Shown here: in pieces, positions 3,540-44,953 of the stretch
Numbering within the stretch: the first letter of the stretch is position 1
Layout: the number at the start of each line of letters is the position of its first letter
Virus record (IMG/VR): IMGVR_UViG_3300028827_000102
Span: 44,581-108,580 of that record
DNA: 64,000 nucleotides
Origin: a virus
Direction: 5' to 3' (one strand)
Notes under the pieces: model-generated
What the model was told of the DNA's origin: nothing
Database searches by the model: none
The model's input: only the letters and a program-made list of their open reading frames with translations
Position numbers and translations under genes: made by a program

Positions 3540-4278
3540 CCCTTGCTATAAGCTTAACGTTCATCTTATACAAATCCCTAAACCTGAACTTCTTTATCAT
3601 CTTTGGGGTTGAATCGGGCGATGCTTTTACAGCCTTATAATAGTAGTCTGGATCGAAAAATTCTAAGTCTTTGCCAACAATAAGCACTTTGATCCAGTGT
3701 GAATTTTTTGCCGTCTTTTTTACAATACCAGATATATATCTATCACCTTTTCTCCATTCTATCTCATCTCCAATACGTAGTCGTACCATATCTTTTTTCT
3801 TTAGTAATAGCAATCTATTTATTATCGGGGTCAAAGATGCAGCAAGAAACCTCGCATCAGTTTTACTCATTTTTAGTGCTAACAGCAAAGCGTGCCGCAT
3901 TTCGGTTTGCATGCGTACTCCACCCTGTCTTGTTCCCCAATTCCGAAGAACATCTAATGTATTTACTATCATCATCCATTTCCGTGACATAAACCTTATA
4001 GCGGTTAAAATTGGCACGGATTCGTATTTTCCAGAAGGTAAAATTTCATTTATATCAAAATAATATGGAATATAACACTTCTTACAGCTCCATGTATTTT
4101 TATCCATAGGCTCATCTAGCTTAGACCCTAAAAATGTTTGCGCGCCTTGACAACATAACAACTTGCCATGTATTATTTTTTCCCACATGGCACAGGTGCT
4201 ACATATTATAGGTATATCTTCTCCGGTTTTGGGGTGAGTGTAATATTTATTTTTAATACGAGGCAGCTGAGGCATCAT
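3532..4278 (-). CDS. Hypothetical protein (N-terminal Cys cluster, C-terminal KOW/SH3-like)
   Basis: CSTC...CC...CKKC; LRIGDEIEW; overlaps both neighbours. Confidence 0.6.
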   Translation of the reverse strand: MMPQLPRIKNKYYTHPKTGEDIPIICSTCAMWEKIIHGKLLCCQGAQTFLGSKLDEPMDKNTWSCKKCYIPYYFDINEILPSGKYESVPILTAIRFMSRKWMMIVNTLDVLRNWGTRQGGVRMQTEMRHALLLALKMSKTDARFLAASLTPIINRLLLLKKKDMVRLRIGDEIEWRKGDRYISGIVKKTAKNSHWIKVLIVGKDLEFFDPDYYYKAVKASPDSTPKMIKKFRFRDLYKMNVKLIARDD

Positions 4279-10547: not shown

Positions 10548-11702
10548 CTATTCTCCCTCTACTTCTACAGAATCATCTGTGCCGTCTAAAGCGTAGTTTT
10601 TATATCCTAGTAGCTTAAAATGTCGTCTATATACAGCATCCTTTTTTAGTAGAGAAAAACAATAATTTCGGAATTCGTCGCTCTCAGCTACTTTTCTAAA
10701 TGCATCCCAAGCTAGATATTTGTCTGTAAAAAACTTTTTAAGCAGTATTTTATTTTTTCCCTGTTTTCTTTCCACCATTCCTATTGCTTCTAGGAAATCT
10801 AGACCGTCTTGAGCTTTATCTATGCCCTTGCCCATTATAATGTCTAATTCAAACTCTTGAAAAGCGGGGAAAGTCTTGTTTTTTATTGTCCTTACCCATA
10901 CATGTTGGCGATACATACCAACTTTATCTTCTTCGGCTTTCTTTCTACCGTGTACTCTAATTGCATAATCAGGATAATACTTCCAAGCCTGCCCTCCTGT
11001 AGGTGCTTCCGGATTAGCACCAGGCATACGCATATTTATATTCATACGTATCTGATTAGAAGCTATCATTATGGCGCCTTTGTGTGCCAGTAATGATTTA
11101 GTTACGCCAAGAAAACGAGAATGCATTCTAGCTTCTAATCCAGCTGCACCTTCTCCCGTTTCCACATCTCTACTCTTAGAAAACATGGCAGCGACACTAT
11201 CCAACAAAATCAAACAACTTGGTTTATTTATATCATGCAAATTCACATCCGGTAGACGTCTAAGAAATCTATGTAGATGTTTATATACCCCTTCACCTGT
11301 TTCTGGTTGAGCATAAAAATACGCAGGAACATTCTTTCCGTTTATTTCTATTGTTTTGTGTATATCTAATCCTTGTGTACGCATATAAACAGGATCGGCT
11401 GAATGTTCTGTATCATAATGAACAATCGGAATATCTAACTTTTGTCCAGATATCGCACAAGCTTGTAAAAATGTACTTTTTCCGGAAGCTTCTGGACCGT
11501 ATATATGCACTAGCCTGCCACACTGAAAACCTCCACCTAACTTCAGATCTGCTATGAGAGATCCAGTAGACAGGGCTTTATCTACACGATGTGCTTCTCC
11601 CAACGAAACGCAACGTATTTCATCTTTTGTATCATTAAATGCATCTACTATAGCTGTTACCGGATCGGTAAATTCTATATCAGACTTTTTCTTTCTCGGC
11701 AT
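10548..11702 (-). CDS. recA: RecA/UvsX recombinase
   Basis: STGSL.AD..LGGG, GPEASGKST, YDTEH, LDSVAAM, NQIR, GGQAWKYY, IKNK. Confidence 0.95.
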   Translation of the reverse strand: MPRKKKSDIEFTDPVTAIVDAFNDTKDEIRCVSLGEAHRVDKALSTGSLIADLKLGGGFQCGRLVHIYGPEASGKSTFLQACAISGQKLDIPIVHYDTEHSADPVYMRTQGLDIHKTIEINGKNVPAYFYAQPETGEGVYKHLHRFLRRLPDVNLHDINKPSCLILLDSVAAMFSKSRDVETGEGAAGLEARMHSRFLGVTKSLLAHKGAIMIASNQIRMNINMRMPGANPEAPTGGQAWKYYPDYAIRVHGRKKAEEDKVGMYRQHVWVRTIKNKTFPAFQEFELDIIMGKGIDKAQDGLDFLEAIGMVERKQGKNKILLKKFFTDKYLAWDAFRKVAESDEFRNYCFSLLKKDAVYRRHFKLLGYKNYALDGTDDSVEVEGE

Positions 11703-11806
11703 TACACTACCTTATCATTTTCTAGATCTATGCACATCGGTAGCCAGAAGCAATTGGCGCATACTTCTTCTTCTCTATACCTGCCATAACAAGCAGGTTT
11801 ACCCCT
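11702..11806 (-). other. In-frame 34-codon Cys4 extension after the SSB UGA stop (candidate readthrough domain)
   Basis: Reads RGKPACYGRYREEEVCANCFWLPMCIDLENDKVV*; its TAA overlaps the recA ATG (TAATG). Confidence 0.6.
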
Positions 11807-12889
11807 TCAATCAAAAGTTAGATCGTCATCGTCATCGAAAGAAAAATCATCAAGGTCGTCAGAAGAATCGGAAGAATCATCGTCATCATCATCGAAAGAA
11901 AGGTCATCGTCATCATCATCGAAAGAAAGGTCATCGTCATCATTCTTATTTTTTGCCTTCTTTTTATTGCCCTTATTGCTTTTATTGCTCTTATTGCCTC
12001 TTTTTCTGCTGCTATTTTTCTTAGTATTTGTCTTCTCTTCGTCTACAGTATCTTCGTCATCAAAAGAAATGTCATCAAGATCATCATCATTGTCAGTATC
12101 AAATTCAATATCGTCAGAAGACGTGCCAGACACAGATACAGACACAGGAGCCCCAGTAGCTTTAGCTAAAGCAGCGTAACACCCCAACGAGTGTAACTTC
12201 TGTTCCAACACATCTGAATCTATGGTTTCTATTGAATCAAGCAAATCTACTAGTACGCCTTTATGTACCTTCCCCCCTAGCTTACATACATAAGCATCCT
12301 TATTTTCAATGTATTTCACGGGGAGACGTTTTCCTGTGGATACGAATTTGTATTCTACTCCACTCATATATGGATTGCTGCTCTTTTGTGCTAGCCATGT
12401 GAGCACTACACCACGCTTGTCGTCGTCAACAGAAGAACCTATTGCTTCTGCTATTCCCTTAAGTTCCTTCCACTCCAATACGTTCATATTTACCAGGCCC
12501 CACTGCTCGTCCGCGTTTTTCTTTATATTTGTGATGTGGAAAGCATGAGCCAAGTATCTGAAACTCTGAGGCATACGCAACCACTCAAAATCATTTCTCA
12601 CGTCTATATACTTGTGGAAATTGGCGCATATGGGGCAACCATTATCGACACTGGTAGCCTCAGCTATATCCCAATTTGGACATAAAGTATAGAATCCCTT
12701 TAGATCGTTTGATCCCTTTGGAACAAACTTGACGTAGTGTGTAACTATGGTAGCAAATCCACCTACCAGCCTAATCTGTACCGGCTTTCCAATAGACGGT
12801 CTAGAAAGCAGAGGAAGCATTTCATCCCAACGTGAATCCGACTGCTGCCCAGGAACCTCTCCCATAGAACGGAAACCCTTTTTTCTCAT
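11807..12889 (-). CDS. ssb: Single-stranded DNA-binding protein (gp32-like) with acidic tail
   Basis: SD AAGGAG; H...C...CPIC Zn site, OB-like core, acidic tail ending DDDDLTFD; adjacent to recA. Confidence 0.75.
   Translation of the reverse strand: MRKKGFRSMGEVPGQQSDSRWDEMLPLLSRPSIGKPVQIRLVGGFATIVTHYVKFVPKGSNDLKGFYTLCPNWDIAEATSVDNGCPICANFHKYIDVRNDFEWLRMPQSFRYLAHAFHITNIKKNADEQWGLVNMNVLEWKELKGIAEAIGSSVDDDKRGVVLTWLAQKSSNPYMSGVEYKFVSTGKRLPVKYIENKDAYVCKLGGKVHKGVLVDLLDSIETIDSDVLEQKLHSLGCYAALAKATGAPVSVSVSGTSSDDIEFDTDNDDDLDDISFDDEDTVDEEKTNTKKNSSRKRGNKSNKSNKGNKKKAKNKNDDDDLSFDDDDDDLSFDDDDDDSSDSSDDLDDFSFDDDDDLTFD
11877..11944. repeat. 27-bp tandem repeat (about 2.5 copies) encoding LSFDDDDDD
   Basis: tcatcgtcatcatcatcgaaagaaagg at 11877 and 11904, partial third copy. 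Confidence 0.85.
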
Positions 12890-12907: not shown

Positions 12908-14269
12908 TTAAATATTGTCGATACGATTGGCCATTTCTTTTGCCACTTGTACCTTACACGCTAACTGTCGAAGTGTTTCTGAATATACTTCAGCCATATC
13001 TAATCCAGAATTATCTATGCCATCTAGAAGACCATTACGTAAACATAATACCCTACACTCATCTTTTGTCAAGTGCTTTAACATCTTTAGAATGAAATCC
13101 TTCGTTTCATCATTTACAGTAAAAGTATGCTCTTCATCTGGGACATATACAAGCTTATCTTTATCATATACAGAAACTTCTTTCCATTCTGCATCTTCCT
13201 TTTGATCTTGGTCATAACTTACCACCTGCGAAGCTTGTACTTCTCTTAATGTATCTTCTATTTTCTGTACACTACACCCTACTTCCTCTGCCAGCATATC
13301 ATTAGTTGGTTCAAAGATATTTAGTTCTGAAGCTAACTTACCAGCAGCTGATTGAATCTTTTGGTACATTCTCCATGTAGATGATGGTATTTTTATTAGT
13401 GGACCTCCACTAGATTTTCTGTATGCTTGTATTCTCTGTACTACCCACTGACGGGCAAAAGTGGGAAAAGACATGCGTTGTCTATAATCATAGTCAGAAA
13501 CAGCTCTCCATAAGCCAAAAGAACCAGCTTGTAGCATATCACTGGCATGTAGGTCAGAATAAGCATATTTACGTACTTCTACTACCACTAATTTCATGTA
13601 TGATTGCACAATGCGATTCTGTATTGTAGAAATACGTTTCACTATATTATTCACTATGCCGACAACTCCGTATAAATAGTTTGGGTACATTATTCCAGCT
13701 CTCTGTTCAATAAGCCTTTTTTTATCCGTAAGTTTGCTTATTCTCTTCATTATTGACACAATCTCATCGTTGTCAGTAGACAACGAAACCTTTGTCTTTA
13801 AGGTTGCCAGTTCTAATTCTATTTGCTGGTAGTTAGAAGTAATGGCATCAAATGTACGCAATATTGCTTCATATCTGCTATTACGTAAACGTAGCCTTTC
13901 TAAAACAGCCTTAGTTTCTTTTTCTGCTACATCTCTCGGAGATGCTGCTAGCCTGAATAGACTATAACCGGTACTTAGTATCTGCAAATTTCCTGTACCG
14001 ATTTGTACATCGTTGATAGTAGTAAAACCTTTGCACGATTCATCGTATATACTATATTTTTCGTTTTTGACAGCACCTCCAGCAATCCTGTAAAGAATAT
14101 AACATATATTGTCTTCCACAAATGTGGTGTATTTTACCAATTCTTGTATGCCGATACTTGTGTATATTTCTATATCTTTAAACAAGGAATCCAATGTATG
14201 GTAATCTATATCCGGGGCAGATAATATTTGCTTTGCAATGCTATTGAACATTTCAAATTTATCGGACAT
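12908..14269 (-). CDS. Phage sigma-70 (RpoD-like) factor
   Basis: Region 2 LVVVEVRKY...DMLQAGSFGLWRAVSDYD...FPTFARQWV; region 3 EPTNDMLAEEVG; region 4.1 LTKDECRVLCLRNGL. Confidence 0.88.
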   Translation of the reverse strand: MSDKFEMFNSIAKQILSAPDIDYHTLDSLFKDIEIYTSIGIQELVKYTTFVEDNICYILYRIAGGAVKNEKYSIYDESCKGFTTINDVQIGTGNLQILSTGYSLFRLAASPRDVAEKETKAVLERLRLRNSRYEAILRTFDAITSNYQQIELELATLKTKVSLSTDNDEIVSIMKRISKLTDKKRLIEQRAGIMYPNYLYGVVGIVNNIVKRISTIQNRIVQSYMKLVVVEVRKYAYSDLHASDMLQAGSFGLWRAVSDYDYRQRMSFPTFARQWVVQRIQAYRKSSGGPLIKIPSSTWRMYQKIQSAAGKLASELNIFEPTNDMLAEEVGCSVQKIEDTLREVQASQVVSYDQDQKEDAEWKEVSVYDKDKLVYVPDEEHTFTVNDETKDFILKMLKHLTKDECRVLCLRNGLLDGIDNSGLDMAEVYSETLRQLACKVQVAKEMANRIDNI

Positions 14270-44419: not shown

Positions 44420-44953
44420 ATGTGTTATGTTATTCCAGTTTCTGTTTTGTGTATAGAAGATAATTCTGGCGTAGCAGAAGTCATCAAGCAGCTACTTATC
44501 TATTCTAAAGCCAGACTAAAGTACCGCAATGTACCAACACTAAAGATAGCTCTTCGGGAACTAAAGAAGCACAAGTTTGACATAATTTTGTTAGATCTGA
44601 AGCTACCTGATTCTGTTGGTACAGACACGTATCGTGCAATAGCAGAGGCAACGGATTTGCCGGTAATAGTTATTACCGGAACAGCGTCAGAAGAAGAAAG
44701 ACAAAAAATTTTAGAAATGGGGGCAAAGGATTGTATTCGTAAGGATGAAATTACTTCTGACAATTTATGGCGAGCCATTCGATACGTATTGATAGAAAAA
44801 CTCCATGAGGAAGAGATAGCTAATGTAATGAAGGAAATAAAAGAGATAAAGGAACACGTACGTCTGGCCTTTGCCAAGATCCATGCAGTGACAGATCGGT
44901 TAGACAACATCATGCTACCTTTTTCTTCCAACGATGACGCCACGCAGAAATAG
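44420..44953 (+). CDS. CheY-like response regulator receiver with coiled-coil tail
   Basis: IEDN, LLDLKLPDS.G, PVIVITG, GAKDCIRK. Confidence 0.92.
   Translation: MCYVIPVSVLCIEDNSGVAEVIKQLLIYSKARLKYRNVPTLKIALRELKKHKFDIILLDLKLPDSVGTDTYRAIAEATDLPVIVITGTASEEERQKILEMGAKDCIRKDEITSDNLWRAIRYVLIEKLHEEEIANVMKEIKEIKEHVRLAFAKIHAVTDRLDNIMLPFSSNDDATQK

Follow-up and report, generated by a model that had tools for sequence, protein, structure and literature searches.

Programmed readthrough of stop codons is well known in RNA viruses, and to our knowledge very few cases are known in double-stranded DNA (dsDNA) phages. In phage Q-beta, occasional decoding of a UGA codon as Trp yields A1, a minor and C-terminally extended isoform of the coat protein; a conserved stop there precedes an extension that lacks a start. 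T7 10A/10B, the tail chaperones G/GT and dnaX tau/gamma also give products with a shared N-terminus and have a stable stem-loop a few nucleotides downstream of the recoding site, and among tail chaperones the strategy is conserved and the type of shift varies between phages. This frameshift variation is covered in a recoding review (PMC5009743). Here we describe a comparable arrangement at the 3' end of a gene for a single-stranded DNA-binding protein (SSB), located on a 64,000-nt stretch of viral DNA (IMG/VR record IMGVR_UViG_3300028827_000102, positions 44,581 to 108,580 of a record of 108,580 bp). We call the whole stretch the window, and all coordinates refer to it. Behind the UGA stop of the SSB gene, the same frame continues into an extension of 34 codons with four cysteines, named here the Cys4 module. 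As in Q-beta, a conserved stop is followed by an extension without a start. Unlike Q-beta, the locus belongs to a large dsDNA phage, the protein concerned serves replication and recombination instead of the capsid, the extension is a 34-residue Cys4 domain, the case is known from sequence alone, and sister lineages carry the module in frame -1 or +1, sometimes behind UAG. Unlike T7 10A/10B, G/GT and dnaX, the frame -1 junctions of these sister lineages have no slippery motif, and the event would fall on the stop codon.

We put at about one in two the probability that the module is made in this phage by UGA readthrough, giving an SSB-Cys4 isoform. At UGA-A, a fraction of the ribosomes would decode the stop, most likely as Trp, and carry on, and the products would be a major SSB of 360 residues and a minor SSB-Cys4 isoform of 395 residues; the G-rich context and a hairpin 8 nt downstream would favour the event. 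As to the origin of this arrangement, an SSB subfamily may have gained a long acidic tail with an aromatic tip that has to stay free at the C-terminus; a stop would then have parted this tip from an ancestral Cys4 domain. Readthrough and its rate, metal binding by the module and the role of the long isoform are what we infer from the features described below.

A sequence-only reading of the window had described an SSB frame ending in TGA, a 34-codon run in the same frame with a Cys4 pattern, no start codon ahead of it, and a TAA overlapping the recA start codon (TAATG), and all of these statements proved correct. The four Cys stand at codons 6, 16, 19 and 25 of the extension; no in-frame ATG, GTG or TTG lies ahead of the first one, and the sole in-frame ATG is codon 24. 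Since the module has no start, decoding of the UGA by a near-cognate tRNA is the only conventional route by which it could be made in this phage. A leaky stop in frame with a start-less downstream open reading frame (ORF) was found in the window and in two related lineages, L001 and L004/L005. Among the stops of E. coli, TGA leaks most, and the amino acid inserted there is mainly Trp (PMC11126739). G-rich downstream sequence raises readthrough in E. coli and a T after the stop lowers it (PMC11126739), and the context in the window is UGA-AGGGG, with the Shine-Dalgarno (SD)-like AGGGG directly 3' of the UGA. The window by itself makes a weak case. The stops of its 115 simple ORFs are TAA (63), TAG (30) and TGA (22), open extensions of 32-38 codons that seemingly cross nothing but noncoding DNA follow three others of these ORFs, and the 104-nt gap between SSB and recA is the ninth largest in the genome. 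Because comparable open extensions occur elsewhere in the genome, length alone is unremarkable, and the significance of the module comes from its relatives.

Relatives with the gene order sigma-SSB-RecA came from scans of metagenomes and IMG/VR, and the frame tally covers seven lineages, the window among them. All seven share the pattern P-x-C-[YF]-x2-[YF]-x5-C-x2-C-x5-C-[IV]-D, and the distance from the SSB stop to the first Cys is 10-21 nt. Their SSBs are 34-39% identical to that of the window where this is measurable; the modules of the window and L004 share 57% identity, more than the SSBs do, and the 11 residues invariant in the five closest loci are all intact in the window. The sequence-only reading had named a stop, a hairpin and a low dN/dS (ratio of nonsynonymous to synonymous substitution) conserved among homologues as support for readthrough. 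The stop at the tip of the SSB is kept in 7/7 lineages, and it is TGA in five of them. L001/L002 and L004/L005 come from separate metagenomes, are 99.7-100% identical and reproduce the junction, so the TGA junction is no assembly artefact in L001 and L004. A recent nonsense mutation, which the same reading had listed as an alternative, was rejected, as the stop and the module are kept in divergent lineages and the duplicate metagenome assemblies agree. Two lineages, L010 and L013, lie at contig ends with their SSB cores missing, and L013 was assigned to the family by tail type only. Across IMG/VR, a degenerate DNA pattern of the motif matched only six stretches, of which three lie at the 3' ends of confirmed SSB genes (L008, L011, L014), two follow SSB-like tails lacking cores at a contig end (L010, L013) and one is random. 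The module is not universal across the wider SSB family, as the subfamily L017-L021 (tip ending in G-W, stop TAG) has no Cys4 module downstream. At about 3700-4100 in this subfamily, a similar protein sequence stands directly behind the SSB TAG in several loci, which suggests a conserved ORF of another kind at that place. The features of the window and of its relatives are collected in Table 1.

Table 1 Features of the SSB locus in the window and of the split loci in related lineages.
Feature	Position	Strand	Description or basis
SSB gene, gp32-type	11807-12889	minus	360 aa, ends ...DDDDLTFD-TGA
SSB core domain, oligonucleotide/oligosaccharide-binding (OB) fold with putative His/Cys3 site	12137-12889	minus	AlphaFold2 (AF2) and Foldseek
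SSB disordered tail: acidic blocks, Lys-rich block, four tip-like D-[LF]-[ST]-F-D repeats	11810-12136	minus	translation
SSB stop UGA, then A and a G-rich run	11807-11809	minus	sequence
Cys4 module, 34 sense codons, no start of its own	11705-11806	minus	frame of SSB
Hairpin, 7 bp with 6-nt loop, ACCUGCU/GGCAGGU	11779-11798	minus	starts 8 nt after UGA, dG about -10 kcal/mol
Stop TAA of the extension, overlapping recA ATG (TAATG)	11702-11704	minus	last A common to both
RecA/UvsX-like recombinase, conserved downstream neighbour	10548-11702	minus	Pfam RecA 1.8e-35, PHROG UvsX-like 1e-49
Sigma-70-family factor, conserved upstream neighbour	12908-14269	minus	Pfam Sigma70_r2/r3
Junction in the window			module in frame 0 vs SSB, stop TGA-A
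Junction in L001 (=L002)			frame 0 vs SSB, stop TGA-A; hairpin 31 bp
Junction in L004 (=L005-L007)			frame 0 vs SSB, stop TGA-A; hairpin 30 bp
Junction in L003			frame -1 vs SSB, stop TGA, C-UGA-UU; hairpin 27 bp
Junction in L008			frame -1 vs SSB, stop TGA, C-UGA-UU; hairpin 25 bp
Junction in L010			frame -1 vs SSB, stop TAG; hairpin 25 bp
Junction in L013			frame +1 vs SSB, stop TAG

Selection on the module was measured over 28 aligned codons. Synonymous sites were saturated (proportion of synonymous differences, pS, 0.75-1.0, vs a proportion of nonsynonymous differences, pN, of 0.22-0.42), and dN/dS was 0.11-0.77 where dS could be estimated, with 0.20 for the closest pair, L003-L008; it thus stayed below 1 wherever measurable. 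Variable columns by codon position numbered 17, 16 and 27 of 28, and Arg and Leu codons switch family while the residue stays. The module frame is free of stops over the 28 codons in all loci; of the other two frames, one has stops in every locus and the other in 3/7. These patterns indicate clear purifying selection on the module, and selection at the protein level means that it is translated somewhere. An extension under such selection, behind a stop that relatives keep, is the combination expected of readthrough. The module was missed by every gene caller: the module alignment, at short and long lengths, found no split-type module among 5.8 billion predicted proteins.

The same data bear on whether the module is a silent relic in this phage, its 104 nt being no more than a spacer, a hairpin and a ribosome-binding region for recA. 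The open frame is unexceptional in length and the window lacks the long hairpin of its relatives, as a relic would allow. However, an unselected frame would have decayed and gained stops, and here 11/11 of the residues invariant in the closest loci are intact although synonymous sites are saturated against every relative, and the other two frames of the stretch do carry stops. We therefore consider a relic unlikely.

Five of the seven lineages have no canonical start codon for the module. In the window and L001, there is no AUG, GUG, UUG, CUG or AUN in frame between the stop and the first Cys. L004/L005 have only an AUA, right behind the UGA; L003 and L008 offer AUU (overlapping the UGA) or CUG as near-cognate starts, and L010 only CUG. 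Canonical codons lie further upstream in the remaining contexts, namely a GUG 17 codons upstream in L003 and an ATG 33 codons upstream in L013, where the +1 frame is open across the whole poly-Asp tail. On the reverse strand of L013, at about 1-430, this +1 frame is open for more than 140 codons into the Cys4 module, and it is rich in ATG codons, with GAT GAC read as ATG ACG. An overlapping ORF with a normal start is possible, in the L013 lineage only.

The main rival to readthrough is that the module is a micro-protein in its own right, about 3.5-4 kDa in size, which would have arisen by fission of the ancestral SSB C-terminus and would be made by termination-coupled reinitiation at a non-canonical codon; the hairpin would bar free 30S entry and so enforce the coupling. 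The occurrence of all three frames among the seven lineages is what an independent cistron would show, near-cognate codons stand at the junctions (AUA in L004/L005, AUU in L003 and L008, CUG in the three frame -1 loci), the GUG of L003 and the ATG of L013 could serve as starts, the AGGGG directly behind the window UGA is SD-like, and a stop 10-21 nt from the first Cys in every lineage fits termination coupling. However, the window and L001 have no start codon and a later start would cost conserved residues, an ATG has arisen in none of the five start-less lineages although one or two mutations would suffice, and the module works in cis with SSB wherever the two are fused. A micro-protein is a possible explanation that we regard as doubtful.

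The fused forms are four distant SSBs (P0031, P0022, L011 and L014) that carry the same C-terminal Cys spacing without an intervening stop. A profile alignment (hhalign) of the module with the last 37 residues of P0031 was gapless, at E 0.004. The SSB profile recognises the ORFs of L011 (4e-31) and L014 (4e-24), and both have, like the split forms, I-D and a short acidic tip behind their last Cys. By sequence, the module looks like an ancestral C-terminal SSB domain that was split off by a stop in the subfamily with acidic/aromatic tips. The module is a true domain of SSB elsewhere and belongs functionally to SSB.

The hairpin that the sequence-only reading had placed 8 nt after the UGA was found there, and the 36 nt behind the SSB stop form the third most stable fold among 114 gene 3' ends. 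A second local stem-loop in the extension, at 11724-11768 on the minus strand, lies near the second and third Cys codons (GAAGAAG pairs with CUUCU). Five GC-rich split loci have a long hairpin, 25-31 bp against 7 bp in the window, that begins 4-7 nt after the stop (4-6 nt in L003, L008 and L010, whose hairpins are 25-27 bp) and is built from the coding sequence of the module itself, and a hairpin is conserved along with the stop; L013 has no hairpin. In most lineages, a strong structure thus stands at a spacing typical of elements that stimulate recoding. The long hairpins reach -40 to -48 kcal/mol, with z of -3.6 to -6.5 against dinucleotide shuffles, -3.8 to -5.9 against recodings that keep the peptide and the local codon usage, and -3.8 to -6.9 against GC-matched recodings, of which 0/400 were as stable. 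The fused controls gave z of -2.0 and -1.4 against GC-matched recodings. The view that the hairpin is a by-product of the peptide was rejected for the GC-rich loci by the synonymous and GC-matched nulls, and weakly excluded for the window. The apical halves of the hairpins differ between lineages with self-complementarity kept. RNAalifold on all 7 loci gave no useful consensus, since the paired positions move by 1-2 nt from one lineage to another and the long stem is absent from two loci.

At 25-31 bp, the hairpins have the length needed of RNase III substrates. The stretch could act only as RNA structure, as an RNase III site, a stabiliser of the 3' end of the SSB mRNA or an attenuator before recA, with the coding signal as a by-product. 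The hairpins are placed between a highly expressed gene and a less expressed one, and in one pairing register wobble pairs with wobble, which could mimic codon periodicity. Against this, the AT-rich window and L013 lack a long hairpin and keep the amino acids with other codons, the same domain lies inside ordinary ORFs of the fused SSBs, Arg and Leu codon families switch with the residue kept, and no U-tract follows the hairpins. Such a purely structural role is very improbable.

An in-frame UGA with a hairpin at once downstream, within the continuing frame, is also the layout of bacterial selenoprotein genes, and it is present in the window, L001 and L004. The UGA would then encode selenocysteine, with the hairpin as a bacterial selenocysteine insertion sequence (SECIS). 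Unlike these genes, the locus has no SECIS match: Rfam, including SECIS and at permissive E-values, gave no match in the window, L001, L003, L004 or L008. L010 has an equivalent hairpin behind UAG, the module is out of frame in L003, L008 and L010, neither Cys nor Sec stands at the matching position of the fused homologues, and the hairpin sequences vary between lineages. The sequence-only reading had already rated selenocysteine as less likely, and with no SECIS match and with UAG and out-of-frame relatives we find it barely credible.

Several observations weigh against readthrough as proposed here. The frame is not conserved, with frame 0 in three lineages, -1 in three and +1 in one; L010 and L013 use UAG, L003, L008 and L010 have the module in frame -1 and L013 in frame +1. 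The 3/7 lineages in frame 0 look close to random. With 4/7 lineages out of frame, readthrough cannot be the family-wide mechanism; sister lineages differ in mechanism, or readthrough is not the mechanism in any of them. In addition, the window hairpin is short and its excess stability modest (z -2.3, p 0.02 against GC-matched synonymous recodings), and the AF2 model of the module is moderately confident (predicted local distance difference test, pLDDT, 74) and has no fold match. The earlier suggestion of UGA readthrough thus fits the window, L001 and L004/L005, and does not extend to the four lineages that are out of frame, two of them with UAG.

Family-wide recoding on the stop codon in three directions would unite these data. 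In this tentative reading, a conserved cassette made of the SSB stop, a 4-8 nt spacer and a strong hairpin of Cys4 coding sequence would recode on the stop, by readthrough in the window and by -1 or +1 shifts in the sister phages, without a classical slippery site; for the window, it overlaps with the readthrough proposed above. We hold it possible, at a low level of confidence. The stable structure expected 5-9 nt downstream of a -1 frameshift site is present in L003, L008 and L010, where the hairpins start 4-6 nt after the stop. The frame -1 junctions of these three loci (C UGG GAY and the stop) contain no X_XXY_YYZ or Z_ZZN slippery motif, the -1 frameshift motif being taken as defined in PMC4066793. 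A hop between take-off and landing codons and a tandem slip were rejected at these junctions, as inspection found no matching codons or slippery motif. In the same loci, a +1-frame UAA lies within 6-8 nt after the SSB stop (L003 2640-2645; L008 2496-2501; L010, reverse strand after the TAG).

Two further explanations of the UGA were set aside. An alternative genetic code was rejected, since table 11 gives a coding density of 95%, TGA ends 22/115 ORFs and Trp in the SSB is encoded by TGG. A suppressor tRNA of the phage is disfavoured, as no tRNA gene was found in the window or in the 108.6-kb record. The 108,580-bp record is probably incomplete, so tRNA genes could lie outside of it. Another collection has the identical SSB protein on a contig of 163,170 bp.

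The gene ahead of the module encodes a gp32-type SSB, for which cooperative binding of single-stranded DNA is an annotation by analogy. The AF2 model of residues 1-251 has a pLDDT of 92, and the best Foldseek matches of the core are the RB69 and T4 gp32 cores (2a1k and 1gpc, E 2e-6 to 4e-5); gp32 chains take all of the first six places, five with E 2e-6 to 3e-4. An exhaustive HMMER search with the SSB gave 31 proteins at E <=0.001, the query counted in, and residues H51, C70, C85 and C88 are invariant in 16/16 aligned homologues. By sequence, the core carries a putative metal site of one His and three Cys. The core fold, this His/Cys3 site and the acidic C-terminal tail are as in T4 and RB69 gp32. 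Unlike these proteins, the SSB has no sequence match in Pfam, PHROGs or the PDB, and its tail is much longer, with repeated aromatic tips; gp32 is without the Cys4 module. With or without the extension, the SSB gave no match in Pfam and PHROGs, and the PDB sequence search returned low-complexity noise only. Among GenBank phages, neither the SSB nor the module found a useful match at the nucleotide or protein level; IMG/VR gave no match with the single SSB or RecA as query, and GTDB genome contigs gave none either. One remote relative matched Bacillus phage G gp377, which is annotated as an SSB.

Most SSB homologues have a long acidic/basic low-complexity tail and an acidic tip with W or F as the last or next to last residue. 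Since the family normally ends in such an acidic/aromatic tip, the UGA sits at the usual C-terminus of the family, which agrees with the sequence-only reading, and the last of the four D-[LF]-[ST]-F-D repeats in the window is the C-terminus of the SSB. The D/E-rich tips with W or F last or next to last resemble the acidic and aromatic tip of bacterial SSB, which is bound via its free carboxylate. By analogy, this likeness would give a reason to keep the stop at that place and suggests a function for the tip. Unlike in bacterial SSB, up to four tip-like repeats stand within this tail. The repeats are parted by poly-Asp runs, and the basic block is rich in Lys, Asn and Ser. Multiple partner-binding tips on a single tail would be unusual in an SSB.

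Contigs L004 and L007 are otherwise identical and differ by a 38-nt stretch of the SSB tail (L004 672-711 vs L007 1233-1234), and the neighbouring piece of their alignment has a 1-nt gap. Tails of differing length may thus occur in one population. Three IMG/VR contigs of 79-222 kb (the end of L010, the end of L013 and the start of L023) break within the poly-Asp/Lys tail, the repeat of the tail being an assembly breakpoint. L010 and L023 share one sample and may be two parts of a single jumbo phage of more than 275 kb.

As for the module itself, Pfam gave no match at E up to 10, and Foldseek, VIA-align and the ESM Atlas gave none with the 34-mer. The last three Cys are spaced as in WhiB-like Fe-S proteins, which have the pattern C-Xn-C-X2-C-X5-C, and this is a lead only. 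Unlike WhiB, the module has no Pfam Whib match even at E 10 and is much shorter, and no homology was shown. The Cys spacing would also suit an Fe-S site, and 'Zn finger' is a guess. Of the zinc finger suggested earlier, the conserved Cys4 module tied to SSB holds, and the assignment to zinc does not, as there is no Pfam or fold match and the spacing is also compatible with Fe-S.

In the genomic neighbourhood, RecA stands at the equivalent place in L001, L003, L004/L005, L008 and L010, and the sigma-70-family factor in L001, L005 and L008. The sequence-only reading had suggested that readthrough may tune recA translation; the TAATG overlap is not shared by the other loci, where the gap ranges from 3 to about 60 nt or the overlap is 20 nt.

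A full-text search of the literature found no paper combining gp32, SSB, readthrough and bacteriophage, and no SSB is among the cases described in a large review of recoding and in a survey of jumbo phages. Expression of an SSB by stop bypass probably has no earlier report, and the kind of mechanism itself is known. The locus indicates that standard annotation misses real coding capacity at gene 3' ends. The mixed frames together with a strong hairpin behind the stop make a compact and testable system for asking what decides whether a ribosome that pauses at a stop terminates, reads through, shifts or reinitiates. If recoding on the stop holds for the family, a frame-agnostic 'shifty stop' device would be kept across a family of large phages, and it would set the fraction of SSB that is capped by Cys4. 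If readthrough takes place in this phage, one gene would give two SSB species, one with a free partner-binding tip and one with the tip capped by a Cys4 domain resembling a metal site, and the proportion of replication-type to recombination-type SSB could thus be set by simple means directly upstream of recA.

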